Shown: positions 986 to 48,851 of the stretch, in pieces
How the letters are laid out: every line of letters starts with the position of its first letter
Numbering within the stretch: position 1 is the stretch's first letter
Source of the DNA: an uncultured Prevotellaceae bacterium
Lineage (GTDB): Bacteria > Bacteroidota > Bacteroidia > Bacteroidales > UBA932
DNA length: 64,000 nt
Reading direction: 5' to 3'
Assembly: GCA_900314395.1 (NCBI GenBank)
Contig: OMVB01000157.1
Span: forward strand, 4,433-68,432
Notes under the pieces: generated by a model
What the model saw: only the letters and a program-made list of their open reading frames with translations
Databases searched by the model: none
What the model was told of the DNA's origin: nothing
Position numbers and translations under genes: made by a program

Positions 986-1032
986 TCTGTTCCAGAGGCC
1001 ATGGACCCTTATTTTTGGGCCTCTGGAACAGA
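986..1032 (-). repeat. Long palindrome family B, copy 1 (intergenic, rsmH-ftsL)
   Basis: 15-bp perfect stem TCTGTTCCAGAGGCC/GGCCTCTGGAACAGA; 17-nt loop reads CAAAAATAAGGGTCCAT on the minus strand. Confidence 0.9.
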
Positions 1033-1042
1033 GACCGCAAAC

Positions 1043-1960
1043 CTATATTCTAACAGCAGTACGAAGCTTGGCGCTCCGTGCGCGGGTGTTACTTTGTATC
1101 TCTTCTTCCGTGGGAAGGACAGGCTTGCGGTCCAGGGCCTCGAACGGAGTAATCATCCTGCCAAAGGTATCCTTTTCCTGCCGGCCTTCCACGTTGCCGG
1201 TCTTAATAAAATTCTTCACCATCCTGTCCTCCAGGGAATGGTAGGTGATAATCGCGAGTCTTCCTCCCGGGGCTGTCACTGCGGGCAGGGCCTTGAGGAA
1301 TTTTTCCAGGGAGCGCATTTCCTGGTTTACTTCTATGCGCAGCGCCTGGTAAACTTTTGCCAGGAACTTGTGCTCCGCCATCTTGGGCAGGGCGGGCTCC
1401 AGTGCTTTGTCAAGGTCTCCCGTGGTGACGATGGCGGCCTTGCTGCGGGCGACTGCTATAAGTGACGCCAGCCTGCCGGGCTTGTCCACCTCTCCGTACA
1501 GGCGGAATATTCTTTCCAGTTCCGATGCCTCGTAGGTATTCACAATATCTGCGGCGCTAACCGGGGCCTGGGTGTTCATCCTCATGTCAAGAGGAGCATC
1601 GTACCTGAAGGAGAAGCCTCTTTCAGGAGTGTCGAACTGATGTGAAGAGACTCCCAGGTCTGCCAGGACGCCGTCTGCCTTTGCCGGCAGCCCGCGTTCC
1701 TTTGACAGGAGCTCCACATAGTTCTGCACAAAGCGGAAGTTGTTGTGTACAAGTATCAGTCGGTCGTCCTGCGGAGCGTTCCGGAGGGCGTCAGTGTCAC
1801 GATCGAAGGCGATGACCTTGCCACTGCCATTTAAGCGTGAAAGTATCCCGGCGGTGTGACCACCGCCTCCGAAAGTGGCATCGATATAAAGTCCTGATGG
1901 ATTTGTAACCAGCGCGCTTACGCTTGCGTCAAGCAAAACGGGAGTATGATATTCGCTCAT
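1043..1960 (-). CDS. rsmH: 16S rRNA m4C1402 methyltransferase RsmH (MraW)
   Basis: HTPVLL, DATFGGGGH, DLGVSSHQFD, PLDMRM, YHSLEDR and RARSAKLR motifs. Confidence 0.97.
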   Translation of the reverse strand: MSEYHTPVLLDASVSALVTNPSGLYIDATFGGGGHTAGILSRLNGSGKVIAFDRDTDALRNAPQDDRLILVHNNFRFVQNYVELLSKERGLPAKADGVLADLGVSSHQFDTPERGFSFRYDAPLDMRMNTQAPVSAADIVNTYEASELERIFRLYGEVDKPGRLASLIAVARSKAAIVTTGDLDKALEPALPKMAEHKFLAKVYQALRIEVNQEMRSLEKFLKALPAVTAPGGRLAIITYHSLEDRMVKNFIKTGNVEGRQEKDTFGRMITPFEALDRKPVLPTEEEIQSNTRARSAKLRTAVRI

Positions 1961-1971
1961 TCCTTGCCCTC

Positions 1972-2430
1972 CTATCTCTGCTGAGACAATTCTTGGGCAA
2001 GTGCTTGGTAATCAGTGTTGGACATCTCCTTCTCCCTATAGGCGGCAGCGTCCCAGATCTCGATTTTGAAGCCTTTGCCTGCGAATATCACGTCTTTGGT
2101 TAAACCTGACATTTCTTTCAGATTTCCGGGGATGGATATGCGGCCAAGCTTCGGGTCAGGAACGACAATCGCGCTGTCCTGCATATATTTCCTCCAGAAG
2201 TTGGCGTGATTGGGGTTGAAGAAGTTTAGTTTGCTTTTAATAGACTCTGCCTGCTGCTGCCATTCCTCAAATGTGTACATCTCAAGGCAGTTTTGGTAGA
2301 TGTCTTTGTGCAGGACGAACTTCATTTCACACTCAGGGGCGACAAGGGCCTTGAGGCCGGCAGGGAATACTACTCTTCCCTTGTCGTCCAGCTTGGCTGC
2401 AAAGTCTCCTATGAAGGTGGAACAGTTCAT
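1972..2430 (-). CDS. mraZ: Division/cell-wall cluster repressor MraZ
   Basis: KLDDKGRV and DPKLGRISIP SpoVT-AbrB repeats, IEIWD motif; upstream of rsmH. Confidence 0.92.
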   Translation of the reverse strand: MNCSTFIGDFAAKLDDKGRVVFPAGLKALVAPECEMKFVLHKDIYQNCLEMYTFEEWQQQAESIKSKLNFFNPNHANFWRKYMQDSAIVVPDPKLGRISIPGNLKEMSGLTKDVIFAGKGFKIEIWDAAAYREKEMSNTDYQALAQELSQQR

Positions 2431-2458
2431 TATCTTCGGTTTTCTTTCACGCTGGGGA

Positions 2459-2512
2459 CAAAGATACGAAAAACTTTTCCACTTTCTTCCACTTTTTTAC
2501 AATTTTTTCCAC
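2459..2512 (-). promoter_or_regulatory. dcw promoter with MraZ-box direct repeats
   Basis: -7 TATCTTTG at 2466-2459. GTGGAA repeats at 2477, 2487 and 2507 plus a degenerate copy at 2497, with 10-bp period, resemble MraZ GTGG-type binding repeats. Confidence 0.7.
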
Positions 2513-2615
2513 AATTTTTTTAAAATACCCTTTCCCAACGCTACAGAGCCTGTATGGTTTGGAAACTTACGCTCCAAACCATACAGGCTCTTTCGCAAAA
2601 CAACTTGGCTTACCT

Positions 2616-3119
2616 TTAGCCTTTAACGGCGGCCGGCGTCCAGTGCTTGAAGAAACTCAAGACTTTTTTCTTGCTGTAACCGTCACCTTCCTCAAGGTAG
2701 CTGGAGTCTTGCAGGTGAATCACCTTGCCGCTGCCGTCCAGAACCACGAAGACAGGGTAGCCGAAGCGTCCGAAGTTGTTCAGGCGTTTCTGCAGGGCCT
2801 TGTTCTGCTCCGCCTTGGCGGCATCGGCAGTTTTACCGGGCTTGTAGTTCACATGGATGAATACAAAGTTGTCGTCGATGATTTTGGTAATGTCGGCATC
2901 GGCCTTGACGAAGGCGGCGAACTTAAGGCACCAGGGGCACCAGTTGCCACCGACCTGGCAGATGACGAATTTTCCCTCTGCGGAGGCTTTCACAACGGCG
3001 GCCTCAATCTGTTCAAGGGGGTTAACGGTCTCGTCGTAGACGGGTTCTAATTTTTTGTTCTGGGCGTTTGCCAGAAAGGGAAGTGCCAGCGCAAGGGCTG
3101 TAAGGAGTATTTTTTTCAT
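2616..3119 (-). CDS. Exported thioredoxin-family protein
   Basis: WCPWC CxxC motif; signal peptide MKKILLTALALALPFLANA. Start placed at 3119 because the upstream extension is a translated repeat. Confidence 0.85.
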   Translation of the reverse strand: MKKILLTALALALPFLANAQNKKLEPVYDETVNPLEQIEAAVVKASAEGKFVICQVGGNWCPWCLKFAAFVKADADITKIIDDNFVFIHVNYKPGKTADAAKAEQNKALQKRLNNFGRFGYPVFVVLDGSGKVIHLQDSSYLEEGDGYSKKKVLSFFKHWTPAAVKG

Positions 3120-3125
3120 AGAATA

Positions 3126-3153
3126 AGATTTTTCGACTTCGCTCAAAATGACA
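3126..3153 (-). repeat. REP-like hairpin family A, copy 1 (intergenic)
   Basis: Minus strand TGTC-ATTTT-GAGCGAAGTCGA-AAAAT-CT. Confidence 0.85.
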
Positions 3154-3156
3154 AAA

Positions 3157-4407
3157 CTATTCTGTCCAAACAAGGTAGGCGGAAACCAGCCAGAAGTTCA
3201 TCTCGTTTTTCTCGTGGGACAGCGGCTGGGCTGTAGGAATGCTTATGGTAAGGCGGTGGGCGCCGGCGGCAAGGTCCTCAAGGGGAACCACTACCGGATT
3301 AACCTGCGACCCGGGACACCAGTTGGAGCGGGAGTAGTCAGAAGAGGCGATAATCTCGTCAATCTCTTTTTCCACCCTGCGGGGGCCGGACGGGGTCCAG
3401 GCTACGTAAGCGGCGGTACGCCTTTCCGTCCAGACGCCGGAAGTGGGGTTGAAGCGGCGGAAAGATGCGCAGTCCGTGCGCCATGGAGTGTAATCGATAA
3501 CGGCCTCTCCGTCCATCGAAACTATGTTTCTCTGCTTTGTGAACTCATCGCCCTCACTGTGGCCGCCGTGGCCTGTGGTAATGTAAGCAAGGCGTGCGGA
3601 AGAAGGCACCTGGGGCAGTTCAAAGTCTACGCTCAGGTCTTTGCGCGCAAAGATGTCAGGGTACTCCTGGCCAACGTAATAGACAGTGTTAACCAGAGGC
3701 ATTACATGGCGTTTGGGCAGGGGAGTGTACTCGTTTCCGGTCTCCTCTACATCGATATCAACGCTGGCAATATAGCCCTCCTTTGTCCAGGTGTCAATGA
3801 AAACGCCAACGTAGGCATCGTCCTGCAAAAGAGGGAAAAGATCGGTGATATCGGCCTCCCAGTAAGTCTCAGGGGCCCATCCGTCCACGTAGACAGGGCG
3901 CGTTTTGCTAACCTTGGCGGTGTCCAGGCGGCTGTAGAAACCAACGCCGAAGGGCGTCATGAAGCGGAGCAGCTCTGCTGCGGGGGCATATCCGTCGGCC
4001 GCGGCAACGCCAACCAGTTTTTCATATACCAGGGAGTCGACGGCAGGATAGGCGGCTTCTCCGGCGGCTACAGTCATCATGTTTACTGCCTGCGAGCCGG
4101 GGATAACGAATACGGAGCCGCTCTTGTCCCAGCGGTCACCGGCGGATTCTACGCGGACGGTGATGGTGGCTTTGACATCGCGCTCGTATGCGGGCAGTTC
4201 AATCTTTTTAAGTATGATGCGGCCGTTTCCCAGGCGGATGATTCCGTTTTCATCGGCAGCGTTAAAGGCCCCCAGCGAATCCGGAATCCAGCGCAAAGGC
4301 TCCTTCTGGAAAACGCTCAAGCGGGTGTCTCCCACGCTCTTGTAAGTCTTGGTGCAGGCCGATGCAAGGGTTGCGAGCGCACAGGCCAGGATGAGGAATT
4401 TTCTCAT
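3157..4407 (-). CDS. Peptide-N-glycosidase F family lipoprotein
   Basis: DRWDKSGS, ELLRFMTPFG, TTGHGG..GDEF and SRSNWCPG motifs typical of the PNGase F family; lipobox LASAC. Confidence 0.8.
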   Translation of the reverse strand: MRKFLILACALATLASACTKTYKSVGDTRLSVFQKEPLRWIPDSLGAFNAADENGIIRLGNGRIILKKIELPAYERDVKATITVRVESAGDRWDKSGSVFVIPGSQAVNMMTVAAGEAAYPAVDSLVYEKLVGVAAADGYAPAAELLRFMTPFGVGFYSRLDTAKVSKTRPVYVDGWAPETYWEADITDLFPLLQDDAYVGVFIDTWTKEGYIASVDIDVEETGNEYTPLPKRHVMPLVNTVYYVGQEYPDIFARKDLSVDFELPQVPSSARLAYITTGHGGHSEGDEFTKQRNIVSMDGEAVIDYTPWRTDCASFRRFNPTSGVWTERRTAAYVAWTPSGPRRVEKEIDEIIASSDYSRSNWCPGSQVNPVVVPLEDLAAGAHRLTISIPTAQPLSHEKNEMNFWLVSAYLVWTE

Positions 4408-4410
4408 ATT

Positions 4411-5772
4411 TTATTCGTTCATTGTTATAACTTGACCGGAGCCGCGGTACAGGCTTACCGGGCCGTCCGTTTCTATCGCGATAACTGTAATGGCGCTGTC
4501 CAGGGCATCGTCGGGGACCGTAATCTCCAGAAGGCCGGGTACTTCGGACCATGAAAGCTTGTTGAAAATCTTCCACTGCGGAGCGATGTCGCTGCCAACT
4601 ATGCGGACTTTTTTGATGTTGTCCACCAGTCCTTTTACTTCTACCGGGCCGATGGGTTTGTATGGCAGATAGATGTAGAGGACATCGCCGGCGGTGCTTA
4701 CGCTGGTGTATGCCTTTACGTGGTCTCCGGGGATGCCTGCGCGGGTGTTATATACGGCCTCTGAGTGTTTGGAGGTCCATCTTCCCAGTTCTTTAAGTAC
4801 GGCGACTTCTTCCTCCGGGATGCTTCCGTCTTCCCTGGGGCCGATGTCCAGTAGCAGGTTCCCTCCGTTGGAGATGCAGTCTACCAGTGTTTTGAGCACC
4901 ATCTGGGGGCTCTTGAAGTTGAGGTCCTTGTGCTGGAAGCCCCAGGAGTCGTTGATTGTGTAGCAGAGCTCCCAGTAGCGGTCTGCGGGACGCACTACGG
5001 GAACACCTATTTCTGGCGTGCCGTAATCTCCGTAACCCTGTATGCGTGAATTGATTATGCATGCTGGATTGTCGCTGCGGAGCTTGTCTGTGAGCTCTTT
5101 TGCCTTCCAGGTTTCCGCGCTCTGCTCCCAGTCGCCGTCAAACCACCAGAGATCCGGTTTGTACTGAGCCGTGAGCTCGTCCAGCTGTGCCGTGATGAAG
5201 TCCAGGAACTTCTGCCAGCGCTCCGGCTCCGCGGCTATGTCATACTTGGCGGGGCCGTTGCGGTAAATATTGGGATAATCCGGGTGGGACCAGTCAATCA
5301 GTGAATAATACAGTCCCAGCTTCACTCCTCCGCGGCGGCGGACAGCATCGACAAAAGGAGTAAGGACATCCCTGGCGGCGGGGGACATTTTCACAAGGCT
5401 TTTGTCATCGGCCTTGGTGTCCCAAAGGGCAACGCCGTCATGGTGCTTGGACGTGATGACGGTGTATTTGGCTCCGGAGCCGGCAATCAGGTCCGCCCAG
5501 GCTTCAGGGTCGTATGAAGACGCCGTAAACCTCTTGGCCTGGGCCATATAGTCTTCGTGGGAAATGTAACCGTTGTGGAAGGACCAGCTTTCGCTTACTC
5601 CGTCCACGGCGTAGATGCCCCAGTGGATGAAAATGCCCAGTTTGGCATTGTCGAACCATTGCATTTTTGCAGTGTCCACTGGCATGTTCTCTTGAACGGA
5701 ACCGGCCCCCTGTGAACAGGAGGTCAGTACCGGAATTATTGCCAGAAGGCAGTATGTCAGAAATTTTCTCAT
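4411..5772 (-). CDS. Alpha-L-fucosidase (GH29), lipoprotein
   Basis: WFDNAKLGIFIHWG, TSKHHDG, LWWFDGDW and NGGNLLLDIGP motifs; lipobox LTSC. Confidence 0.92.
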   Translation of the reverse strand: MRKFLTYCLLAIIPVLTSCSQGAGSVQENMPVDTAKMQWFDNAKLGIFIHWGIYAVDGVSESWSFHNGYISHEDYMAQAKRFTASSYDPEAWADLIAGSGAKYTVITSKHHDGVALWDTKADDKSLVKMSPAARDVLTPFVDAVRRRGGVKLGLYYSLIDWSHPDYPNIYRNGPAKYDIAAEPERWQKFLDFITAQLDELTAQYKPDLWWFDGDWEQSAETWKAKELTDKLRSDNPACIINSRIQGYGDYGTPEIGVPVVRPADRYWELCYTINDSWGFQHKDLNFKSPQMVLKTLVDCISNGGNLLLDIGPREDGSIPEEEVAVLKELGRWTSKHSEAVYNTRAGIPGDHVKAYTSVSTAGDVLYIYLPYKPIGPVEVKGLVDNIKKVRIVGSDIAPQWKIFNKLSWSEVPGLLEITVPDDALDSAITVIAIETDGPVSLYRGSGQVITMNE

Positions 5773-7049: not shown

Positions 7050-7055
7050 AACTGT

Positions 7056-9344: not shown

Positions 9345-9349
9345 ACGTG

Positions 9350-13178: not shown

Positions 13179-13238
13179 ATGTCACCCTGTTCCAAAGACC
13201 ATGGACCCTTATTTCCGGTCTTTGGAACAGGGTGACAT
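13179..13238 (-). repeat. Long palindrome family B, copy 2 (intergenic, parC-aroK)
   Basis: 22-bp perfect stem ATGTCACCCTGTTCCAAAGACC/GGTCTTTGGAACAGGGTGACAT; loop GGAAATAAGGGTCCAT on the minus strand. Confidence 0.9.
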
Positions 13239-13247: not shown

Positions 13248-15992
13248 TTAAATATTGAAGAGGTTAGGCTCTTCCTCGTCACCGAATGAGAGGTCGTCTA
13301 TGCCAAGGTCAATGACGTCGCCTGCTACTGCGTCCCGCTTTTTGGGAGATTCTTCGCTTTCGCTCAGAATGACAGGGGAGTCGCTCTGGGTGACAGGGGA
13401 GTCTTCTGGAACCGGCAGGGGCTCTCCGAAGGCGACGGCCTTGAGGTCGAACGGCGAGCACTTCTTGCCCTTGGCCGTGAAGCCCTTCTTGCCGATAAAC
13501 TCCTCTGCATCAATTGTTTCCGGCTGCCTGTGTGCGAACTTGCCACCGAAGGTAAGCTCTATAACCGGACGCTCGTCGGAAGAAACAGCAACCAGGTAAC
13601 TGCCCTTGGCATCGGCAATAAAACCAAGAGGAGTGTTGTCGCTTACAGGGAAACTGAACCTCTTCACATAGAAGGCCTTGGCCGCACCGTCCCAGTAAAG
13701 GGCCGTATAGGTCTTGGAAGTATCCAGCTTTTCTATCTGGAGCACATCGCCCTGATAGCGGTTGCTAAGGTCGAACGAAGTGGTATAGAAGGTTCCGTTC
13801 TTGAAAACCGCCAGGATCTTGTCCTCTGCGCCAAACTGTCCAAGGTGGATTCCGCGGCCGTCCTCATTCAGCCTCTGGACATCGGCATCGTACCAGATAT
13901 CCTTGCCGCTGATAGTGGAAACACCCTTGTTCTTGAGGGTTATCCTCTGGATGGCGTTCTTTGTCACAAGATTGCCCCTTGAACCGCGTGCCTTGATTGC
14001 CAGGGCAGAGAAATCGTATTCGATAGAACTCTTCTTGAGCATCGGCTTGGGCCTGAAGGTGACTCGCACGCTCTCTGCCTCTCCGTTGTGGTTGGCCGTC
14101 ATCCACATAATCTGGCTGCCCGGCTTGCCCTGGGTGATATCGTACTCCTTGTCGCGGGTTATAGAGGTGATATTGAAGCGCTTAGCGTAATATATGGAGG
14201 ACTTTCCGTCGCGGTAGATTACGTTGTAGATTGTACGGTCGTCGCCTCGGTTGAAGACATTCGCATAAATCAGGTCCTTTGCGATGAACGCCTTGTCCGT
14301 AACCTTTGTCACCCTGTATGTTCCATCCTTGCCGATGGTGATGATTTCACTCAGGTCAGAGCAGTCGCAGATATACTCTCCGCCATCGTCTTTCTTAAGG
14401 CCGATGCCGACGAAGCCCTCTGCCAGGTTGGCATAAAGCTTGGCGTTGTTGTTGACAACCTTGGTGGCTGCGATGGTCTCGAAGTTGGTGATTTCCGTCT
14501 GGCGGGGGAAGAGGTCCCCGTATTTTTTCTTAAGGGACTTGAACCAGTCGATGGTGTACCTGGTAAGATGCTCCAGCTTGTCCCTGAGGTCTGCAATCTG
14601 CTCCTCTATGCCGCGGATTCTCTCTTCCACGGCCTTGACGTCGAACTTGGAAATCTTGCGCACCGGCTTCTCCACAAGCTTAAGGATATCGTCCATTATA
14701 ATCTCGCGGTTAACCTGGCCCTGGAACTGCTTCATGGCCTCGAATACCTCCTGAAGCTGAATCTCCCAAGTCTTCTGGTCCTGCTCCAGGACTTTGTAAA
14801 TGCGGTTCTCGAAGAAGATTCTTTCAAGGGAGTTGTAATGCCAGTCGTCCTCCAGCTCGTTCAGGCGAATCTGAAGCTGGCGGCCAAGGAGCTCCTTGGT
14901 GTGGTTGGTGCTGTATTCCAGCACGTCGTTTACGCTCAGGAACTGCGGCTTGTTGTCTACGATAACGCAGGCGTTGGGCGCGATTGTAGTCTCGCAGTCC
15001 GTGAAGGCGTAAAGTGCATCAATCGTCTTGTCCGGGGATACATCGTTGGGAAGGTGAATCACAATCTCTACCTTCTCCGTAGTCATATCCTCTATTTTCT
15101 TAATCTTGATTTTGCCCTTGTCCTTTGCCTTCAGGATGGTGTCTATCACCTGCTGGGTGGTCTTTCCGTAAGGAATCTCCGTTATGGCGATGGTATTCTT
15201 GTCAATCTTCTCAATGCGCGCGCGTACCTTTACAATACCGCCGCGCTTGCCGGCCATGTATTTGGAGCACTCCGCGAAGCCGCCGGTAGGGAAGTCCGGG
15301 AAAATCTGGTAGGGCTCTCCCTTAAGGATGGCGATGGATGCATCCAGAAGTTCGTTGAAGTTATGCGGGAGAATCTTGGAAGCCATACCCACGGCAATGC
15401 CCTCAGTTCCTTGCGCCAGAAGCAGCGGGAAACGTACCGGGAGCTCCGTAGGCTCCTGGTTGCGGCCGTCATAGGACGTCATCCAGTTGGTAATCTTAGG
15501 GTCGAATACAACTTCCTTTGCGAACTTGCTCAGGCGGGCCTCTATGTATCGGGGGGCCGCATTGCTGTCACCGGTGAGGATGTTACCCCAGTTACCCTGG
15601 CAGTCTACGGTAAAGCCCTTCTGGCCCAGCTGGACCAGGGCTCCAAGGATGGATGCATCACCGTGAGGGTGATACTGCATGGCCTGTCCTACGATGTTCG
15701 CAACCTTTGTAAAGCGGCCGTCGTCCATCTTGTACATGGCGTGGAGCACACGCCTCTGTACGGGCTTCAGTCCGTCCACGATGTGCGGGACGGCCCTGGC
15801 CAGGATTACATAGGATGAATAGTCAAGGAACCAGTCCTTGAACATTCCGGAAAGCTTGAACTTTGTGCTGTCTTCACCCAGCAGGCGGTCGTATCGTCCG
15901 CTGGGAGTGGCCGAATCGTCCAAAGGCTCGCCGGCTTCATCGTCATCGAATTGACTGTCAACGTTTTTGATATCGTCCCAATCTTCGCTCAT
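13248..15992 (-). CDS. parC: DNA topoisomerase IV subunit A (GyrA/ParC family, Bacteroidetes type)
   Basis: DGLKPVQRR, YHPHGDASI and APRYIEARL catalytic Tyr; ParC rather than GyrA is inferred. Confidence 0.85.
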   Translation of the reverse strand: MSEDWDDIKNVDSQFDDDEAGEPLDDSATPSGRYDRLLGEDSTKFKLSGMFKDWFLDYSSYVILARAVPHIVDGLKPVQRRVLHAMYKMDDGRFTKVANIVGQAMQYHPHGDASILGALVQLGQKGFTVDCQGNWGNILTGDSNAAPRYIEARLSKFAKEVVFDPKITNWMTSYDGRNQEPTELPVRFPLLLAQGTEGIAVGMASKILPHNFNELLDASIAILKGEPYQIFPDFPTGGFAECSKYMAGKRGGIVKVRARIEKIDKNTIAITEIPYGKTTQQVIDTILKAKDKGKIKIKKIEDMTTEKVEIVIHLPNDVSPDKTIDALYAFTDCETTIAPNACVIVDNKPQFLSVNDVLEYSTNHTKELLGRQLQIRLNELEDDWHYNSLERIFFENRIYKVLEQDQKTWEIQLQEVFEAMKQFQGQVNREIIMDDILKLVEKPVRKISKFDVKAVEERIRGIEEQIADLRDKLEHLTRYTIDWFKSLKKKYGDLFPRQTEITNFETIAATKVVNNNAKLYANLAEGFVGIGLKKDDGGEYICDCSDLSEIITIGKDGTYRVTKVTDKAFIAKDLIYANVFNRGDDRTIYNVIYRDGKSSIYYAKRFNITSITRDKEYDITQGKPGSQIMWMTANHNGEAESVRVTFRPKPMLKKSSIEYDFSALAIKARGSRGNLVTKNAIQRITLKNKGVSTISGKDIWYDADVQRLNEDGRGIHLGQFGAEDKILAVFKNGTFYTTSFDLSNRYQGDVLQIEKLDTSKTYTALYWDGAAKAFYVKRFSFPVSDNTPLGFIADAKGSYLVAVSSDERPVIELTFGGKFAHRQPETIDAEEFIGKKGFTAKGKKCSPFDLKAVAFGEPLPVPEDSPVTQSDSPVILSESEESPKKRDAVAGDVIDLGIDDLSFGDEEEPNLFNI
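13346..13403 (-). repeat. REP-like family A, copy 4 plus a partial tandem copy (in-frame in the ParC tail)
   Basis: Encodes DSPVTQSDSPVILSESEESP; ATTCT/AGAAT stem. Confidence 0.85.
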
Positions 15993-37928: not shown

Positions 37929-39653
37929 ATGGCAAATTACTATACAGACCATCCCGAAATCAAGTTCCACCTTGGCAAACCCCTCATGAAGAGGATTGCA
38001 GAGCTCAAGGAACGCGGATACACCCAGAAGGATCTTTATCCGGAGGCACCTGTAGATTTTGAGGATTGCATAGAGAACTATAACCGTCTGCTTGAGATTG
38101 TAGGCGACGTTGCCGCAAATGTTATCGAGCCCAACTCAGAGAGTGTAGACCTTGAAGGACCGCACCTTGAGAACGGCCGCATGATTTACGCATCCAAGAC
38201 CGTAGAGAACATGGAGGCAGCCACCAAGGCCGGTCTCTGGGGCCTCACAATGCCCCGTCGCTACGACGGACTCAACTGCCCGGAGGTCGTTTTCAGCATG
38301 GCAAGCGAGCTTATTTCCGCCGCCGATGCTTCTTTCCAGAACATCTGGAGCCTTCAGAGCTGTGCAGAGACTCTTTACGAGTTCGGTAACGACGACCAGC
38401 GCCAGCGTTTCATCCCCCGCGTATGCGCAGGTGAGACCATGTCCATGGACCTTACAGAGCCCGATGCCGGTTCTGACCTCCAGAGGGTTATGCTCAAGGC
38501 TACCTGGTCAGAGAAAGACAATTGCTGGCTCCTTAACGGCGTTAAGCGTTTCATCACCAACGGTGACTCAAACATCCACCTTGTACTTGCCCGCTCAGAG
38601 GAAGGAACAAAGGACGGCCGCGGCCTTTCAATGTTCATCTATGACAAGCGTCAGGGAGGCGTTAACGTACGTCACATAGAGCACAAGCTGGGTATCCACG
38701 GCAGCCCTACCTGCGAGCTTACTTACAAGAACGCAAAAGCAGAGCTCTGCGGAAGCCCCCGTCTTGGCCTTATCAAGTACGTGATGTCCCTTATGAACGG
38801 CGCACGTCTGGGAATCGGCGCGCAGAGCACCGGTCTTAGCCAGGAGGCTTACAACCAGGCAGTTGCATATGCAAACGAGCGCGAGCAGTTCGGTCAGAAG
38901 ATCAAGAACTTCCCGGCAGTTTACGATATGCTCAGCCGTATGAAGGCAAAACTTGATGCAAGTCGCACAATGCTTTATCAGACAGCTGCTTACGTAGATG
39001 TTTACAAGGCTCTTGAGGACATCCAGCGCGAGCGTCCTCTTACCCCGGAAGAGAAGGCGGAACTCAAGAAGTACAGCCGTATGGCAGACGCTTTCACTCC
39101 TCTTTGCAAGGGTATGACTTCAGAGTATGCAAACCAGAACGCCTATGACGCAGTTTCCGTACACGGCGGTTCCGGTTTCATCATGGAGTACAAGTGCCAG
39201 CGCCTCATGCGTGACGCACGTATCTTCTCTATCTACGAGGGTACCACCCAGCTCCAGGTAGTTGCATCCATCCGTTACATTACCAACGGTACTTACCTTG
39301 GAATTATCGACGAGATGCTTCAGAACGAGGTTTCAGAGGCTATGAAGCCGCTGAGGGCCCGCGTAGAGAAGATGCTCGACGCCTACAAGGACGCTATCGA
39401 GAAGGTTAAGGCTTCAGGGAACCAGGAGGTTCAGGACTTCCTTGCACGCCGTCTCTATGAGATGACCGCAGGCATCGTTTACTCCCTGCTTCTCATCGAT
39501 GACGCTTCCAAGGCTCCTGAGATGTTCGAGCGCAGTGCAAACGTTTACGTTCGCATGGTAGAGGCAGAGGCCGCTGCCCACAAGCAGTACATTGACAATT
39601 TTGTTGCCGATGCCGCCGCAGCCGACACTCTGGCTGCCTTCCGTGCAGAATAA
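37929..39653 (+). CDS. Acyl-CoA dehydrogenase
   Basis: DLTEPDAGSDL, NGVKRFIT, KLGIHGSPT, VHGGSG and IYEGTTQLQ motifs. Confidence 0.95.
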   Translation: MANYYTDHPEIKFHLGKPLMKRIAELKERGYTQKDLYPEAPVDFEDCIENYNRLLEIVGDVAANVIEPNSESVDLEGPHLENGRMIYASKTVENMEAATKAGLWGLTMPRRYDGLNCPEVVFSMASELISAADASFQNIWSLQSCAETLYEFGNDDQRQRFIPRVCAGETMSMDLTEPDAGSDLQRVMLKATWSEKDNCWLLNGVKRFITNGDSNIHLVLARSEEGTKDGRGLSMFIYDKRQGGVNVRHIEHKLGIHGSPTCELTYKNAKAELCGSPRLGLIKYVMSLMNGARLGIGAQSTGLSQEAYNQAVAYANEREQFGQKIKNFPAVYDMLSRMKAKLDASRTMLYQTAAYVDVYKALEDIQRERPLTPEEKAELKKYSRMADAFTPLCKGMTSEYANQNAYDAVSVHGGSGFIMEYKCQRLMRDARIFSIYEGTTQLQVVASIRYITNGTYLGIIDEMLQNEVSEAMKPLRARVEKMLDAYKDAIEKVKASGNQEVQDFLARRLYEMTAGIVYSLLLIDDASKAPEMFERSANVYVRMVEAEAAAHKQYIDNFVADAAAADTLAAFRAE

Positions 39654-39660
39654 ACGACGG

Positions 39661-39745
39661 ATTAATACAAAATATATATCCCAAAGGCCAAAATAAAAGG
39701 GTCCATGGCCTTTGGGATATATATTTTTATTAATAATGCTATTCC
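39661..39745 (+). repeat. Long palindrome family B, copy 3 (left boundary of the polymerase cassette)
   Basis: 21-bp stem 39669-39689/39707-39727; loop AAAATAAAAGGGTCCAT. Confidence 0.9.
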
Positions 39746-39921
39746 CGGTCCTTTGCGGATTGCTCTGCAGTGGCGGCGATGATATCCTCGTAGCCGGTGA
39801 GGGCGGCGAAAGGCGCGAACTGGGCGGCACGGTCCCGGCGCGGCATGCGGGGGTGCCGGATAGACGGTTCCGGATGGGGGAGGTTTATGATATCGTCGTA
39901 GATATGATCAAAGTCACTCAT
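39739..39921 (-). CDS. Short YolD/YqjX-like polymerase accessory protein, probably C-terminally truncated
   Basis: YDDIINLPHP...RAAQFAPFAALTGY motif typical of genes following UvrX/YqjW-type polymerases; only 60 aa; overlaps the polymerase stop (ATGA). Confidence 0.7.
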   Translation of the reverse strand: MSDFDHIYDDIINLPHPEPSIRHPRMPRRDRAAQFAPFAALTGYEDIIAATAEQSAKDRE

Positions 39922-41327
39922 TGCCTGTGTCCTCCTACCTGTTTGTTGCGTTCTATTGCTGTTGCACCCTCGTCAAAATTGGTCCCCTTGAGTATGGCGT
40001 TTTTGCCGTACTTCCGGCGGATAGCCAGGATGGCCTCCTGACGGCGGCGCTCGCGGTCTTCATCGGCCGGTGAATTGTCCTGGAACAGAAACAGTTGCTC
40101 GCCCTCCACCTTGTCTTCCGGAACGGTGTTCCCGAAGCCTATGTAAATGCGCCTTACAAGAAGACCCGGGTCTGCAATCCTGTCGAATATCTCTACCATT
40201 TCCTTGCGTATCAGCGCCGTGGACGAGCTGTGCCGCCCAAGCTGGGAAGAGCCGTGGGACGGTTTGGGCATAGCCCTGCCATAGAAGTCTGTGGTTACCG
40301 TACCCTTGAACTTTCCGGGCTCTTCAAGGCTGGCCGTATCATATACTATATCAAGGGTAATGTGGTCCGTAAGCAGTTTTTTAGCCACCAGTTCCATTAC
40401 CAGGGATTCCGTCATTTCCTTGGTTATAACCTTGGCCTCTGCGCAAGTGTAAGGCCGGGAAAGAACCTGGCCGCGGCTAAGGCTGTTGGTGGAAGGCCGA
40501 TATGCTTTTATATCTTCCATTGTGCATGGCTCCCAGCCCCAGGCATGGTCTATAAGCAGCTCTGCGTTCACTCCTAAGAGTTTGTACAGGAAATCCTCCG
40601 AATAGCGTCCGTAGCCCCGTCCAAGGGAGCACCGGGCGACATCGCCAAGGGTGAACAGGCCGGCGGTCTCAAGGCGGGCCGCAATGCCTCGCCCGATCCT
40701 CCAGAAATCGGTCAACGGCCGGTGATTCCAATACTTACGACGGTAGCTGAGCTCGTCCAGTTCTGCGATCCGGACGCCGTCGGCATCGGCTTCCTGATGC
40801 TTGGCCTCTATGTCCATTGCAATCTTTGCAAGATAAAGATTAGGGCCGATGCCGGCCGTAGCTGTGATTCCGGTTGTGGCCAGTACGTCGCGAATCATGC
40901 GCATCGCAAACTCATGGGCGCTAAGCTTGTAAAGCCTCAGGTAATCGGTAGCGTCTATGAAGACCTCGTCTACGGAGTAGGGGTGAATATCTTCCGGGGC
41001 TACATATTTAAGGTACACATTGAAGACCTGCCCACTCACCTGCATGTAGTAACCCATACGCGGCGGTGCGGCTATGAAGGTGACTTGCTGCGACTTAGGG
41101 CGCTTTGCGTTGACTTCCCTAAGCCGCTGCTTCACCTCAAACAGCCGCGCCCTGCCGGGAATGCCGAAGGCTTTTAAAGATGGCGTCACAGCCAGGCATA
41201 TAGTCTTGTCCGTACGGCTTTCATCGGCAACGACAAGATTGGTCGTAAGCGGGTCCAGCCCCCTTGCGACACATTCCGCCGAAGCGTAGAAAGACTTCAG
41301 GTCAATGGCTATATATGTTTTCTGCAT
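39918..41327 (-). CDS. Y-family translesion DNA polymerase (UmuC/UvrX/YqjW-like)
   Basis: IAIDLKSFYASAEC, YSVDEVFID, TATAGIGPNLYLAK and AILAIRRKYGKNAILKG motifs. Confidence 0.93.
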   Translation of the reverse strand: MQKTYIAIDLKSFYASAECVARGLDPLTTNLVVADESRTDKTICLAVTPSLKAFGIPGRARLFEVKQRLREVNAKRPKSQQVTFIAAPPRMGYYMQVSGQVFNVYLKYVAPEDIHPYSVDEVFIDATDYLRLYKLSAHEFAMRMIRDVLATTGITATAGIGPNLYLAKIAMDIEAKHQEADADGVRIAELDELSYRRKYWNHRPLTDFWRIGRGIAARLETAGLFTLGDVARCSLGRGYGRYSEDFLYKLLGVNAELLIDHAWGWEPCTMEDIKAYRPSTNSLSRGQVLSRPYTCAEAKVITKEMTESLVMELVAKKLLTDHITLDIVYDTASLEEPGKFKGTVTTDFYGRAMPKPSHGSSQLGRHSSSTALIRKEMVEIFDRIADPGLLVRRIYIGFGNTVPEDKVEGEQLFLFQDNSPADEDRERRRQEAILAIRRKYGKNAILKGTNFDEGATAIERNKQVGGHRQ

Positions 41328-41331
41328 ACAG

Positions 41332-41362
41332 CGAAGTTAGCTATTTTCCCGGAAAGAACAAA
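41332..41362 (-). promoter_or_regulatory. Cassette-internal promoter for the polymerase
   Basis: TTTG (41362-41359), 19-nt spacer, then TAACTTCG (41339-41332), a one-mismatch -7 element just upstream of the ATG. Confidence 0.5.
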
Positions 41363-41366
41363 CCGC

Positions 41367-41447
41367 GGAATAGCATTAATAAAAATATATATCCCAAAAG
41401 CCGGAAAATAAGAATCCATGGCCTTTGGGATATATATTTTGTATAAT
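41367..41447 (+). repeat. Long palindrome family B, copy 4 (right boundary of the polymerase cassette)
   Basis: Stem 41382-41402/41420-41440 with one mismatch; loop GGAAAATAAGAATCCAT. Confidence 0.9.
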
Positions 41448-41456
41448 CTGTCTGTC

Positions 41457-41900
41457 TTAGAACCTGAAGTTGATTCCGGCGCCAAGGACAAACTGGTCGT
41501 ATTTGCTGATTACGTATTTAACATCAGCAGCGAAGATAAGTACATCGGTAAGAGGGAACTCAATACCTGCACCTACGTTGATACCGGGCTTGGTAGAAGC
41601 GTGCTTGATGCTTGTAAGGTTAAGTCCTGCAAAAGGATAGAAAGTTACTGACTCGTTGCCAAGGAGGTACTGAGCGTTAGCGTTTACCTCAAATACGTTA
41701 GCATTGTCGTCCGGGTAGAAGTTGAATCCGAGTTCACCGCGGATGTCATTCTCAAAACCGTACTGACCAAGAATGCCGATACCGATTTTCTCGATTTCGC
41801 TACCATAAAGGAAACGAGCGCCAACGGACTTTTCGCCCTTCTGTGCGAATGCTGCAACGCTGATGAGAGCGGCTGCAATTACAAGTGCTAATTTTTTCAT
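41457..41900 (-). CDS. Small outer-membrane beta-barrel protein (OmpA-TM/PorT-like)
   Basis: Signal peptide, alternating amphipathic strands, C-terminal GINFRF. Confidence 0.8.
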   Translation of the reverse strand: MKKLALVIAAALISVAAFAQKGEKSVGARFLYGSEIEKIGIGILGQYGFENDIRGELGFNFYPDDNANVFEVNANAQYLLGNESVTFYPFAGLNLTSIKHASTKPGINVGAGIEFPLTDVLIFAADVKYVISKYDQFVLGAGINFRF

Positions 41901-44748: not shown

Positions 44749-44808
44749 AGTGCTGACTTCAAAGTCCAAAAATTAAGGGTCCATGGACTTTGAGGTCAAC
44801 ACAGCACT
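44749..44808 (+). repeat. Long palindrome family B, copy 5 (downstream of phoH)
   Basis: TGACTTCAAAGTCC, loop AAAAATTAAGGGTCCAT, GGACTTTGAGGTCA; compensatory GTCC/GGAC. Confidence 0.85.
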
Positions 44809-44812
44809 ATCT

Positions 44813-46147
44813 TTATAGCAACTTTGCGGCGAGTTCTGAAAGCTCGCTGCGCTCTCCTTTGCGCAGGAAGACATGCTGGAAGAGCTTCTGGCCGGCCATC
44901 TTCTCTCCCAGATGGGTGAGGCCGTTGCTCCACTGGTCCAGGTAGGGCTGGTCGATCTGGAAGATGTCGCCCGTGAAAACCATCTTGGTGCCTTCTCCGG
45001 CGCGGGTTATGATGGTCTTGATCTCATGAGGGGTGAGGTTCTGGGCCTCATCGATAATGAAATAAACGTTCCCGAGGCTGCGTCCGCGGATGTATGCCAG
45101 CGGGGTGATGAGCAGTTTTTCGTCCTTCAGGAAGCTGTCGATTCTCTGGGCTTCCTTGCTGGAGGGACGGTACTGCGCCTTGATTACGTTAAGGTTGTCC
45201 ATGAGGGGCTGCAGGAAGGGAGCCATTTTGGTCTTCTCGTCTCCCGGGAGGAAGCCAATCTCCTGATTACCAAGTATTACCGTGGGCCTGGTGAGGATTA
45301 TCTGGTCATATTTTCCCATCTGCTCCAATGCCGATGCCAGCGCTATCAGGGTCTTTCCCGTGCCGGCGCCTCCGGTGAGGGAAACCAGCTTTATGTCCGG
45401 GTTAAGACAGGCGTCGATGGCAAAGCGTTGCTCGTCGTTGCGGGGCTTGATGCCGTAGACTTCTTTTTTGCGGACCAGGCCGATGACATCCCGGTCTGCG
45501 TCATAGCGGGCGCAGATAAAGTCGCCGCCGTCGTCCTTGCGGAGCTTGAACAGCTGGTTGGGGCTGGGCTTCTTGGCCACGAGTTCCTTCCACGGCACTG
45601 AGTTGTCCTGCCCAAAGGCTATTTTTGCAACAGCCTCTGCGGGGGCCTTGTCCATTACAACGACCTCTTTCTGGGTGAATTCCACACGCTCGTCCTCTAC
45701 TTTGTCGGTCAAGTAATCCTGGGCCTCCATATCTGCCGCCTTGGCCTTCAGGCGAAGGTTTATGTCCTTGGTTACCAGGGCGGTGAAGCGTCCCGGGTGG
45801 TTGTCGCGCACCCAGATTGCGGTGGCCAGGATGCGGTGGTCCTGGATGTCGTCCTTGAAGAGGTCCTGCATATTGGCGGGGAAGGGATGGTTGGGCTCGA
45901 TTTTTATGCGTCCCAGGTTCTTGCCGATGGGAACTCCGTCAACGCCGAACCGCTTCCCGTTGGTGAGTTTGTTGATTTCGCGCATGAAGCCGCGGGCGTT
46001 GTAGCTGAGGGCGTCGTTGCCTTTCTTGAATTTGTCCAACTCTTCTATTACGGCCATCGGTATTACGATGTCGTTATCCTGGAACTTCCTGATTGAGCGG
46101 TAGTCGTGCAGGATGATATTGGTGTCGAGAACGAATATTTTTGCCAT
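44813..46147 (-). CDS. PIN-PhoH (PhoH2/YlaK-like) protein
   Basis: N-terminal PIN (FVLDTNIIL, VIEELD, QDHRIL, TKDINLR); C-terminal GGAGTGKT, YIRGRSL and DEAQN. Confidence 0.92.
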   Translation of the reverse strand: MAKIFVLDTNIILHDYRSIRKFQDNDIVIPMAVIEELDKFKKGNDALSYNARGFMREINKLTNGKRFGVDGVPIGKNLGRIKIEPNHPFPANMQDLFKDDIQDHRILATAIWVRDNHPGRFTALVTKDINLRLKAKAADMEAQDYLTDKVEDERVEFTQKEVVVMDKAPAEAVAKIAFGQDNSVPWKELVAKKPSPNQLFKLRKDDGGDFICARYDADRDVIGLVRKKEVYGIKPRNDEQRFAIDACLNPDIKLVSLTGGAGTGKTLIALASALEQMGKYDQIILTRPTVILGNQEIGFLPGDEKTKMAPFLQPLMDNLNVIKAQYRPSSKEAQRIDSFLKDEKLLITPLAYIRGRSLGNVYFIIDEAQNLTPHEIKTIITRAGEGTKMVFTGDIFQIDQPYLDQWSNGLTHLGEKMAGQKLFQHVFLRKGERSELSELAAKLL

Positions 46148-46172
46148 TTTTATGTGATTTTTGCCGATGATT

Positions 46173-47291
46173 TCAGTCTTCTCCTTCCGATGCGTTGTCC
46201 ATTAACGATATGAGGATGCCTTTGAGCGCGCTGCCCGATGTGTCCAGCGTCAGGGCGCCGTCGGCGCCGGATAACTGTCCCAGGGGGTAGTATGCGACGT
46301 CCTGCAGCAGCAGTTCCGCGTCTATGTAGTCGAAGTCGTAATCTTTGATCTGGATTAGTACGCCGGGGATTTCCCCGAAGAGCAGTTTGGTGATGTCTTC
46401 TTCCTCTGCGGCGCGGGCCACACTGGCGATGTCGGCGGTGAAAGCTTTGTTACCGATGAATTTGTACAGGGCTGTATACAGGCCGCCATCGGCAACGGGA
46501 GTGCCTGCAACGGCAACGCCGTCTTCTACCAGTTCGCGGACGACTTCATAACAGTCTATGAAGTAGTCTGCGTCTGTGACGTCCGGGGATTTGCCGCCTT
46601 CTTTCCCGGTGGCCTGGGCCAGCAGGGAGCCGCCAAGGCGGTAGCGGCAGGTGTCGAATGGTATGTAGATTATCCAGTCGCCCTTTGACGGAATGGCCAG
46701 GGGGCTGGTTTTAAGGGCTTTTCCTATGTGTGCGTCCGGGGTTATGAAGGGGCTTTCTTCAAAAAGGGTGTCTTCTCCCGGGAGGCTGGCTACGGTGTCG
46801 CATCTGATTTGCAGGGAGTTGGCGGCTCCGGGGGCAAGGCTGTAGCCGCCCAGTTTTACGCCCAGGTTGTCCATGTATTCGCAGGCCCAGGATACGGATT
46901 CGTAGAATGCGGCCATGCTGCCGATGGGGGCTTCGTTCCAGATCCAGTCTGCCTGCGGTCTAAGGTCTCCCAGTTTGAAGTGGCCTTCTTTGAAAAGGGC
47001 TTCCAGCAGGCCTCTGGCTACTGCCAGGCGGCTTAGGGAGCCGCTGTAGCATAGCGGGAAGCTTTCTCTTTTGGTGCTGGCGACGGCTTTTGCGTAGGAT
47101 TTCGCCAGGGTTGGTTCAAAGTAGCCGTTGCCCGGCTGGGGGTCTGCGGCTTCGTCTATGATATCTTCCTGGCCGGGCTCCGGGGAGGTGTTTCCTGCGG
47201 GCTGGTCCTGACAGAGTGCGGAAAGGATTTCGCGTGGCGTAGCGTCCATTTCGCGTCCGTCGATGATGTAATGTGAGTCTAATGCTTTCAT
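46173..47291 (-). CDS. Divergent stand-alone PurM/PurL-like (AIR synthase-related) domain protein
   Basis: RLGGSLLAQ, DVTDADYFIDCYEVVRELVEDG, DGGLYTAL and LFGEIPGVLIQ resemble the second PurM-like domain of large PurL. Confidence 0.6.
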   Translation of the reverse strand: MKALDSHYIIDGREMDATPREILSALCQDQPAGNTSPEPGQEDIIDEAADPQPGNGYFEPTLAKSYAKAVASTKRESFPLCYSGSLSRLAVARGLLEALFKEGHFKLGDLRPQADWIWNEAPIGSMAAFYESVSWACEYMDNLGVKLGGYSLAPGAANSLQIRCDTVASLPGEDTLFEESPFITPDAHIGKALKTSPLAIPSKGDWIIYIPFDTCRYRLGGSLLAQATGKEGGKSPDVTDADYFIDCYEVVRELVEDGVAVAGTPVADGGLYTALYKFIGNKAFTADIASVARAAEEEDITKLLFGEIPGVLIQIKDYDFDYIDAELLLQDVAYYPLGQLSGADGALTLDTSGSALKGILISLMDNASEGED

Positions 47292-47336
47292 TTGTCCTCA
47301 AAAATAAGTATTTTTGAAGTGAAATCAAAATGTAAG

Positions 47337-48851
47337 ATGAACGAATTGGAATATAAGGAATTATTGGACGGGATTTTCCGGAGGTTCCCAAGTGTGCAGA
47401 GTGCGGGATTTTCGGGGGATGCGTATAAGCCTGGTTTGGATAATATGGTGCGTTTCCTGGAGGTTTTGGGGAATCCTCATAAGGAGTTCCGGTGTGTTCA
47501 TGTGGCGGGGACTAACGGAAAGGGGTCTGTGTGTAATATGCTTGCGTCGGCTTTTGCTGCAACTGGCTGTAAGACAGGTCTTTATACTTCCCCTCATATT
47601 CTTGATTTCCGGGAGCGGATGCGGATAGTCGATGAAGTCCGTGGGGACAACCCAAAGGCCGAAAATAAGGGTCCATGGCCTTTGGGTTGTCCCACGGACC
47701 CTACGGCTTTCGGGAGCAATACCCCAAAGGCCGAAAATAAGGGTCTATGGCCTTCGGGGTATTCTCCCGACAAGCCTATATGGTATTTGGTACCAAAGGA
47801 GTATGTTTTCCAGTTCCTGAAGCAGTGGGCGGGGACTTTCGACCGGCTGCGGCTGTCGTTTTTTGAGATTACGACGGGGATGGCTTTCAAGTGGTTTGCG
47901 GATGAGGGGGTGGATGTGGCTGTGATTGAGGTTGGATTGGGTGGCCGTCTGGACAGTACGAATGTTATTACTCCGGAGCTTAGCATTATTACTTCTATTG
48001 GCTTGGATCACTGTGATTTGCTGGGGGATTCGCTGGAGAAGATTGCATATGAGAAGGCGGGGATTATTAAGCCTGGGGTGCCGGTTGTGATTGGGGAGTA
48101 TCGCCCGGAGACTGCTCCGGTGTTCCGCCAGGTGGCGTCTGAGCGCAAATCTCCGATTTTCTTTGCCGAGGAATCAGGTCTTCGGACAGTATATCCGAAG
48201 GCCGAGACATCCCAAATCCGGCTGGATTTGCAAGGGGAGTACCAGAGGGCGAACCTTCGGACGGTGCTGACGGCGCTTGGCGTCCTTGGGATGCCCGGTC
48301 GGGCCGGGCATGACGAAGGTCCGTCATTGCCGGCCGCGACCGGCAATCTGACCGCTGCGGTTAGGGAGGCGATAGCGCATACGGCGGCGCGGACGGGCTT
48401 CGGGGGCCGCTGGGAGCATCTGAGCGAGGACCCGCTGGTTATCTGCGACATCGGCCATAATGCGCATGCGTTGAGCCATAACTTCCCGCAGTTGGAGGGG
48501 ATGATGGAGAGCGGCGTATATGATTGTTTGATAATTGTTTACGCTGTGATGGCGGATAAGGATCTGGACGCTATTCTGCCGCTTATGCCGCGTTGCGCGC
48601 ATTATATTTTCACTACCCCCAAAGGCAAGCGCGCCCTGCCGGCCGCTAAGATTCAGGAAAAATACGATGATTACGGTCTTCGGACAGTGTATCCGAAGGC
48701 CGCTGTCGCCATTGACGATGTGCAGGAAGCGGTGAGGGAAGCGCTTAAGACAGCATCGGCGTATAAAAAACCAATAATATATATCGGTGGCAGTACTTTT
48801 GCAGTAGCAGAGGCTAAACCAATTTTCCAGAAGGAAGCAAACCAAAAATAA
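47337..48851 (+). CDS. folC: Folylpolyglutamate synthase/dihydrofolate synthase with repeat-derived insertions
   Basis: HVAGTNGKGS, YTSPH, SFFE, EVGLGGRLDSTN and DIGHN motifs; start placed downstream of -7 TATTTTTG (47309-47316). Confidence 0.93.
   Translation: MNELEYKELLDGIFRRFPSVQSAGFSGDAYKPGLDNMVRFLEVLGNPHKEFRCVHVAGTNGKGSVCNMLASAFAATGCKTGLYTSPHILDFRERMRIVDEVRGDNPKAENKGPWPLGCPTDPTAFGSNTPKAENKGLWPSGYSPDKPIWYLVPKEYVFQFLKQWAGTFDRLRLSFFEITTGMAFKWFADEGVDVAVIEVGLGGRLDSTNVITPELSIITSIGLDHCDLLGDSLEKIAYEKAGIIKPGVPVVIGEYRPETAPVFRQVASERKSPIFFAEESGLRTVYPKAETSQIRLDLQGEYQRANLRTVLTALGVLGMPGRAGHDEGPSLPAATGNLTAAVREAIAHTAARTGFGGRWEHLSEDPLVICDIGHNAHALSHNFPQLEGMMESGVYDCLIIVYAVMADKDLDAILPLMPRCAHYIFTTPKGKRALPAAKIQEKYDDYGLRTVYPKAAVAIDDVQEAVREALKTASAYKKPIIYIGGSTFAVAEAKPIFQKEANQK
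47641..47770 (+). repeat. Long palindrome family B, copies 6 and 7 (tandem, in-frame in folC)
   Basis: CCCAAAGGCC-GAAAATAAGGGTC(C/T)AT-GGCCTT(T/C)GGG twice with different outer arms; encodes PKAENKGPWPLG and PKAENKGLWPSG. Confidence 0.9.
48177..48203 (+). repeat. Hairpin family C, copy 1 (in-frame in folC)
   Basis: GGTCTTCGGA-CAGTATA-TCCGAAGGCC encodes GLRTVYPKA. Confidence 0.85.
48287..48350. repeat. Inverted pair of CGTC-tagged REP-like hairpins (in-frame in folC)
   Basis: Minus strand CGTC-ATGCCCGG-CCCGA-CCGGGCAT and plus strand CGTC-ATTGCCGG-CCGCGA-CCGGCAAT, back to back; boundaries approximate. Confidence 0.8.
48675..48701 (+). repeat. Hairpin family C, copy 2 (in-frame in folC)
   Basis: GGTCTTCGGA-CAGTGTA-TCCGAAGGCC, 26/27 identical to copy 1, again encoding GLRTVYPKA. 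Confidence 0.85.

Follow-up and report, generated by a model that had tools for sequence, protein, structure and literature searches.

REPs (repetitive extragenic palindromes), MITEs (miniature inverted-repeat transposable elements) and RPEs (Rickettsia palindromic elements) are normally recognised by their conserved stems or ends. Here we describe a family of dispersed hairpins in which this is reversed: the loop is fixed and the stems are private to each copy. Seven copies had been reported, from a reading of the sequence alone (the sequence-only reading), in a stretch of 64,000 nucleotides of an uncultured Prevotellaceae bacterium (contig OMVB01000157.1 of assembly GCA_900314395.1). This stretch, called the window below, corresponds to positions 4433-68432 of contig C131 in our numbering (C131:4433-68432).

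The family shares some features with each of the closest described systems and differs from each of them in others. REPs and REPINs (REP doublets forming hairpins), mobilised by REP-associated tyrosine transposases (RAYTs), are likewise short, lineage-specific extragenic palindromes that lie at the 3' ends of genes and number from tens to hundreds, and RAYT-like Y1 genes are present in our genome too; but REPs have a conserved stem and a RAYT gene is flanked by its REPs, whereas here only the loop and the inner stem are conserved and no RAYT-like gene is flanked by copies. REPs, as outlined in PMC3733652, carry a conserved GTAG or CGTC tetranucleotide tag at the end of the palindrome. Neither tag is found in the position profile of our family, which holds no information outside positions -16 to +20 around the loop. 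MITEs (e.g. the Correia elements of Neisseria) are also small, non-coding, dispersed and polymorphic among strains, and often supply terminators, but they have conserved terminal inverted repeats and direct target-site duplications; here the termini are the least conserved part and no duplication was seen. RPEs are 100-150 bp long, conserved in sequence throughout, and inserted in-frame in protein-coding genes. They resemble our family in that the palindromes lie within essential genes without destroying them (here folC and a gene for an MtaB-like protein), but our units are of ~37 nt and have locus-specific arms. In plastid DNA, small inversions of hairpin loops distinguish close relatives at isolated hairpins; the same kind of flip between identical stems is seen here (site C159:34367), but in a dispersed family. 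Template-switch mutation, in which the nascent strand briefly copies the opposite arm or the opposite strand, perfects quasi-palindromes, builds a perfect hairpin in a single step and inverts the loops of hairpins (PMC10710096). This process (quasipalindrome correction in the Ripley model) has in common with our family the one-step reverse-complement arms, the loop inversion and the Watson-Crick pairing; its hairpins, however, are one-off and have arbitrary loops, whereas here one core is found at ~65 loci, so something must also spread or homogenise the centre.

Architecture of the hairpins

The whole assembly of the source genome (G000; 2.30 Mb in 187 contigs, 50.7% G+C, 98.7% complete; its contigs carry C numbers) was scanned for the loop, and the complementarity of the flanks was then scored. 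This census gave 65 hairpins with a median stem of 22 bp, 61 of them with a stem of at least 14 bp. All are built around a shared core of ~37 nt, YYCAAAGGCCA-AAAATAAGGGTCCA-TGGCCTTTGRR, in which a 10-bp stem of the type CCAAAGGCCA/TGGCCTTTGG surrounds the asymmetric 15-nt loop AAAATAAGGGTCCA, closed by CCA/TGG. The sequence information lies entirely between positions -16 and +20 around the loop; further out, pairing continues with no shared sequence. In the stems, conservation covers the ~10 bp adjoining the loop, whereas the outer 5-20 bp differ at every locus. Pairing is nonetheless strict, with 1344 Watson-Crick pairs (94%), 17 G-T pairs (1.2%) and 61 mismatches in the 65 stems. Most outer arms have no match in the genome other than their own partner and were therefore not brought from another locus, which rules out transduction of the arms from elsewhere in the genome. 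Some arms form subfamilies, e.g. AAAATATATATCCC is found in five copies.

The sequence-only reading had described stems that covary around a fixed loop, and a larger alignment bears this out. In an ungapped alignment of 32 copies, 86.9% of the cells are paired, against 59.0% after shuffling (none of 500 shuffles reached 86.9%) and 26-47% in a control with slid partners. Changes on both sides were seen in 21 of the 25 pairs, amounting to 252 cells where 88.5 were expected.

There are 137 hairpins with a stem of at least 12 bp in the genome, and ~50 of them belong to the fixed-loop family; the others resemble ordinary terminators (an A-run, a GC-rich stem, a T-run and a loop of 4-7 nt). The assembly is fragmented and some repeats sit at contig ends. 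For example, a perfect 65-bp palindrome around the family core is found at a contig end (C148:10074-10218), and contig C53 begins with the same sequence; a fold-back by the assembler is the probable source, not a real 65-bp stem. An assembly artefact as the source of the family itself was rejected because the copies recur across independent ENA, Logan and NCBI assemblies. Avoidance of restriction sites (CCATGG or GGWCC) was also ruled out as a driver, with observed/expected ratios of 0.8-0.9.

The seven copies claimed for the window are all real and lie at the places where they had been reported (we give as the strand of a copy that of its loop consensus). Their loop and closing stem are as had been described; the stems, put at 14-22 bp, are longer in several cases. 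Five copies are intergenic and, as had been noted, lie just downstream of a stop codon, at distances of 9-16 nt. Copy 1 (986-1032, minus strand; stem TCTGTTCCAGAGGCC) is 10 nt past the stop of an ORF on the minus strand (1043-1960), and its pairing reaches ~977-1041, giving ~23 bp. Copy 2 (13179-13238, minus strand), with the perfect 22-bp stem ATGTCACCCTGTTCCAAAGACC, follows the stop of another minus-strand ORF (13248-15992) by 9 nt. Copy 3 (39669-39727, plus strand; 22-bp stem AAAATATATATCCCAAAGGCCA, extendable to ~29 bp) lies between convergent genes, 15 nt past the stop of an acyl-CoA dehydrogenase gene (37929-39653, plus strand). Copy 4 (41382-41440, plus strand), which belongs to the same arm subfamily as copy 3, is found 16 nt past the stop of an outer membrane protein gene (41457-41900, minus strand), with its loop antisense to that gene; it has a mismatch in one arm in our genome (AAAAGCC vs GGCCTTT) and is paired in other strains. 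Copies 3 and 4, in direct loop orientation (window 39651-41459), bracket a Y-family polymerase gene and an ORF of 60 aa, and their flanks are cross-matched (GATTAATAC..TATTAATAATGCTATTCC vs GGAATAGCATTAATA..GTATAATC), as though a duplicated hairpin enclosed a cassette. Copy 5 (44750-44802, plus strand; stem GTGCTGACTTCAAAGTCCA, with mismatches) is 10 nt past the stop of a PhoH-like gene (44813-46147, minus strand), to which its loop is antisense.

The remaining two copies lie in-frame inside folC, the gene for folylpolyglutamate/dihydrofolate synthase (47394-48851, plus strand; the start was converted from the gene called on strain contig L151, and the frame is open from 47292), after the motif LYTSPHILDFRERMRIV. 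Copy 6 (47644-47693, plus strand) encodes GDNPKAENKGPWPLGC and copy 7 (47718-47763, plus strand) encodes NTPKAENKGLWPSGYS, and both read as ..PKAENKGPWP..; the pairing of copy 6 extends to GTCCGTG/CACGGAC at ~47637-47700, giving ~24 bp. When folded as DNA, the window copies reach dG values between -14.5 and -28 kcal/mol (z-scores between -4.9 and -9.9). It is this hairpin context that stands above chance: the 14-mer by itself, allowing up to three mismatches, does not do so in the window (eight found, five expected). At 49177 there is a weak pattern match without a stem, which does not belong to the family.

Distribution and allelic variation

The hairpin family is restricted to one lineage. 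The exact loop (one mismatch allowed) occurs 41 times in our genome and at most twice, which is the chance level, in any one of 400 species sampled from its genus; it is also at chance level in 16 genomes from other families of the order. A more generic search (the inner stem with a loop of 12-16 nt) gave 25 matches in our genome and up to six, the level of the reversed control, in 120 high-quality genomes of the genus. A covariance model built from 32 copies, with 34 candidates scored per genome, found at least 34 copies in our genome, and two marginal, generic hairpins in 150 genomes representing 142 genera of the order. Matches in more than 500 other genomes of the genus and the order are at chance level only. 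The one other species with true copies (~6) is a sister species, Bacteroidales bacterium RGIG4399 (G417) from roe-deer omasum, whose flanking genes are 77-94% identical to ours at the nucleotide level; it was brought up by an exact 15-mer scan of genome contigs that was otherwise swamped by chance matches. A metagenome scan with a 21-nt pattern returned one true match, from the same species. A burst in one species, ~6 copies in its sister and chance levels in the genus and order samples agree with the expectation that copies are not fixed across genera. In a third species, a folC hairpin at the same spot has the same inner stem and a diverged loop (GAAATTATGGCCAA); the design therefore predates the burst. 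The family had not been recognised in the sequence-only reading, and Rfam does not recognise it either: the window gave no match at the gathering score, and a search by E-value brought up nothing but miRNA-precursor noise at 26-34 bits, where the cut-offs are 91-105.

Within the species, the copies are not stable: strains show them rewritten at the level of DNA. Contigs from other strains (ruminant-type assemblies; strains are ~99% identical) were retrieved by exact protein lookup; the species turns up in hundreds of Logan and ENA blocks. Copies 1 and 2 of the window are fixed in six other strain contigs (copy 1 is identical in all six, and one strain has a single change in one arm of copy 2). 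Other sites differ among strains. At C159:34367 the loop is inverted in place: it reads AAATATAAGGGTCCA in one strain and the reverse complement of this in another, and the stems and flanks are identical. In another example (C159:39139), the loop and one arm differ as a block between strains, and our genome is left with an imperfect stem. Five clustered changes are found in one arm at C147:21611. A site on C55, downstream of a gene with a Golvesin_C domain, has three alleles: one strain has the full hairpin, our genome and three other strains have a half hairpin from which the left arm and the loop's 5' part are missing, and two strains have a second half hairpin with a deletion between direct repeats AAAAA(G/A)TAA, one at the gene end and the other in the loop. 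Active regeneration of complementarity, which the sequence-only reading had put forward, fits these data at the DNA level (almost no G-T pairs, loop inversion in place, and replacement of the loop and one arm as a block). At C147:21611-21700, a left arm with loop, a second left arm with loop and a single right arm follow each other in all strains examined; the sister species has only 3 nt at the orthologous site.

Copy 6 in folC is polymorphic as well: four of eight strain contigs are without it, missing 42 nt. The empty allele reads GTCCGTG-GGACAAC-CACGGAC in three contigs and GTCCGTG-GTTGTCC-CACGGAC in one, the two being exact inversions of each other's 7-nt centre, and the filled allele has both orientations of this centre, with the core between them. 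No single contiguous deletion in the filled allele would yield the type 1 empty allele. Filled alleles come with the pairs CCCAAAGG/CCTTTGGG, CCCGAAGG/CCTTCGGG or CCAAAAGG/CCTTTTGG. The A/G state of the core co-varies within strains between copies 6 and 7, which are 72 nt apart, and some strains have a single recombinant copy made from the two; judged from these alleles, the seemingly compensatory changes of copy 6 are best read as exchanges of the whole core.

Filled and empty sites can also be compared between our genome and the sister species (other genomes of the genus, with 65-75% coding identity, are too divergent for this purpose). Locus L132 of the sister species and the 93%-identical C56 site of our genome differ by 48 nt, which comprise the core and CAGGGCAGTCATG, and the latter is an inverted copy (13 out of 15 positions) of the adjacent CATGACGGCCATGCA. 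At another site, C147:13468, the stem of the short allele is 11 bp long and its right flank, AATAGCATAGGAT, is unpaired; the long allele has in addition ATCCTATGCTATT at the left, which is that right flank copied in inverted orientation. These two sites and copy 6 suggest that one arm is the older and that the other may be its inverted copy. Overlaps of arms with coding ends are at most 5 nt, too short to tell which arm pre-existed. No direct target-site duplication was found at the filled/empty pairs compared, only microhomologies of 2-9 nt at the indel ends. The arms differ in concert between the two species at one orthologous site (L138 vs C63). At the sites orthologous to copies 3, 4 and 5 of the window, the sister species has, respectively, a hairpin of a different family (TTACGCA..TGCGTAA), an ordinary terminator (A-run, stem, T-run) and a TGTCATTTCGA-type repeat; these positions therefore change from one kind of hairpin to another.

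Mechanism and competing explanations

We lean, by a modest degree, towards a DNA palindromic repeat that is remodelled, and probably spread, by template switching at replication together with gene conversion, and away from an RNA motif, a classical REP/RAYT system or a MITE. The near absence of G-T pairs, the independence of orientation and the inversion of the loop in place argue for templating at the DNA level rather than selection on RNA. Within a hairpin, the nascent strand would switch template at replication and copy the opposite arm, which would keep the arms mutual copies; the same switch could also flip the loop and extend the stem into the flank. Gene conversion between copies would keep the loop and the inner stem uniform, while the non-homologous outer arms would stay unique. 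The mode of spread to new loci is what we infer, and it is the less supported part: the core may be copied into a short hairpin already in place, or next to one, with inverted copying of the neighbouring bases (snap-back synthesis), and so give rise to a new copy; this would make an inverted, not a direct, target duplication. No dedicated enzyme for this came to light.

Several points weigh against this explanation. Template switching by itself accounts neither for the arrival of the core at new loci nor for the uniformity of the loop. The allele pairs in which the shorter allele retains one arm all have direct repeats of 2-5 nt at the indel ends (TGGG, ATTTA, TTG(A)CA); and half-hairpin deletions do occur (C55), so the cases that look like inverted target duplications could be deletions from full hairpins. 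Five sites that are empty in the comparison of our genome with the sister species (L143, L131, C147:13468, C147:21611 and window copy 2) have no trace of either arm. Arm subfamilies such as that of AAAATATATATCCC imply that some copies spread together with their arms.

A more tentative idea, to which we give a minority chance, is that the core is a DNA hairpin that propagates itself with no need of a transposase; in a variant of the idea, some unknown nuclease specific for the loop would drive the same reactions. During its copying, at a replication fork or at a break, the core would snap back and prime synthesis along its own strand; this would produce an inverted duplication of the target flank, with ends made anew from host sequence at each insertion, after which the loop would flip and the arms would be continuously re-templated.

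An enzyme could instead take the lead, with template switching secondary: a single-strand nuclease or transposase specific for the loop, acting on hairpins that are extruded or on the lagging strand (a Y1 HUH protein of the RAYT/IS200 kind, or an unknown recombinase) would nick the hairpin and seed copying or insertion. The loop and closing pairs are near-invariant while the stems differ, as for a recognition site; the same loop occurs, with different conserved stems, in a second repeat of ~75 nt, which suggests that the loop is a functional module; and the burst is confined to one lineage. The genome also encodes three distant RAYT-like proteins (NF047646, 39.7-43.8 bits, where the family cut-off is 80 bits; C58:4813-5664, C141:<775 and C83:~4021-4188), and the two that were examined have HUH-like and Y-x-x-N-P-V motifs. 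However, these scores lie below the cut-off, RAYT-like genes are equally present in genus mates that do not have the hairpin family, no family copy adjoins any of the three in our genome, the hairpin flanking the C58 gene (GACTTGCAYATACCC) is different from the fixed-loop family, and the GTAG or CGTC tag is missing. The association with a RAYT/IS200-type transposase that the sequence-only reading had suggested is thus not supported when co-occurrence is checked, and we consider an enzyme-driven hairpin unlikely. Selection on RNA, in which the hairpins serve as functional intrinsic terminators or stabilisers of mRNA 3' ends, with the loop kept by an RNA-binding protein or a small RNA and the stems kept for RNA structure, would fit the location of the copies: by a purpose-made simple gene caller, 18 are in convergent, 20 in tandem and three in divergent contexts, mostly less than 30 nt past a stop codon (at least eight abut the stop). 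The stems are very stable, some copies have an outer A-run and T-run like bidirectional terminators, and the other hairpins and the terminator at the sister-species sites of copies 3-5 indicate positions that need or tolerate a hairpin. But the orientation of the loop is independent of transcription (9 vs 11 relative to the upstream gene in tandem contexts) and inverts between strains, G-U pairs make up 1.2% only, and several copies lie inside coding regions (at least four in-frame inside genes, including folC and the MtaB-like gene). A T-run (at least five T in six bases) is found at both outer ends in nine of the 65 copies, at one end in 12 and at neither end in 44; a simple terminator scan flags no family copies because their loops exceed 8 nt. 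It is also implausible that one 15-nt loop arose convergently at 65 loci in a single species lineage, and we judge this explanation improbable. Of the hairpin in single-stranded DNA or RNA that the sequence-only reading had envisaged, the DNA-level regeneration fits the strain data; a strand-specific role in RNA is unlikely because the loop faces either way, flips between strains and comes with a T-run in only 21 of the 65 copies.

An ordinary MITE or REP family, in which the whole hairpin was transposed in trans with its arms, and the arms then diverged fast and were corrected in concert, would account for the five empty sites with no trace of either arm, for the arm subfamilies and for the concerted difference at L138 vs C63. 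Similarity in our family, however, is greatest in the middle and falls off towards the ends, whereas a transposon would have its termini conserved; direct target duplications are lacking at the filled/empty pairs, most outer arms are unique, and no autonomous partner was found, so that this is to us a very improbable account. Among the loop-motif matches in the 187-contig assembly, in which some repeats sit at contig ends, no autonomous IS element with the same ends was found. Copying by a reverse transcriptase (retron, group II intron or diversity-generating retroelement type) was rejected because the genome has no reverse transcriptase: PF00078 has no match in it (the domain is detected in RGIG4399, in genomes G023 and G050, and in three out of 14 control genomes).

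Related repeats, in-frame insertions and implications

Other repeats were observed near the subjects treated above. The C58 RAYT-like gene (283 aa, with HVH and Y-x-x-N-P-V motifs; region C58:4300-6000, locus L216) has on either side a direct repeat of ~110 nt, which ends in the hairpin GACTTGCAYATACCCCC..GGGAAWRTGCAAGT. The second repeat with our loop, of ~75 nt (GGAAAATCTATTTGTACC-ATTCGCTCCG-ATTATAAGGGTCTATG-TCGCTCAGGTACAAATAGATTATTCC), has the loop motif between direct TCGCTC repeats and conserved stems; it has ~20 copies, many of them at contig ends (C73, C103, C135, C165, C170, C118, C149, C76, C88, C152 and C115). There are also hybrid copies, with the core of our family inside ATTTGYACC stems. 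Insertion of the loop unit, with direct duplication of TCGCTC, into an ATTTGYACC palindrome was considered and rejected: the genome has no 'empty' form with a short loop. Tandem arrays of a CTGTCATTTCGAGCGAAG..GAGAAATCT repeat are found in the flanks of C13, C53, C73, C103, C118 and C149, and at the sister-species site orthologous to window position 44754; when translated, this repeat corresponds to the CHFDRSGEI inserts in FolC proteins of other species, and it is probably what the sequence-only reading had listed as its family A. Another hairpin family, with a conserved 16-bp stem (TTACGCATTTTAACTY/..TGCGTAA) and a 13-nt loop, occurs in both genomes (C30:30760, C139:7633, C153:24822 and C170:44874 in ours, and the sister-species site orthologous to window position 39669).

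The position in folC after RERMRIV (window 47550-47840; homologues P0014-P0021) is an insertion hotspot across species: different species have different in-frame palindromic repeats there, and distant FolC proteins are without the whole segment of ~50 aa. In another example, a gene for an MtaB-like radical-SAM methylthiotransferase (C161:1031-2386, minus strand) has two tandem in-frame copies of the loop variant CCAGAAATTAGGGGTCTATGG in a domain linker, encoding ..SKDQKLGVYGHL.. and ..PKDQKLGVYGRL... The linkers of the sister-species orthologues of both genes carry other repeats and cannot be aligned as empty sites.

Natural strains catch this family while loops flip, arms are rewritten, hairpins lose one half and copies enter essential genes in-frame. 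If spread by snap-back synthesis or template switching is real, repeats would proliferate without a transposase, making inverted target duplications and new perfect hairpins, and this way of spreading would in addition supply terminators and protein insertions. Many polymorphic sites are available in public rumen metagenomes, and the question can be tested by population genomics alone.

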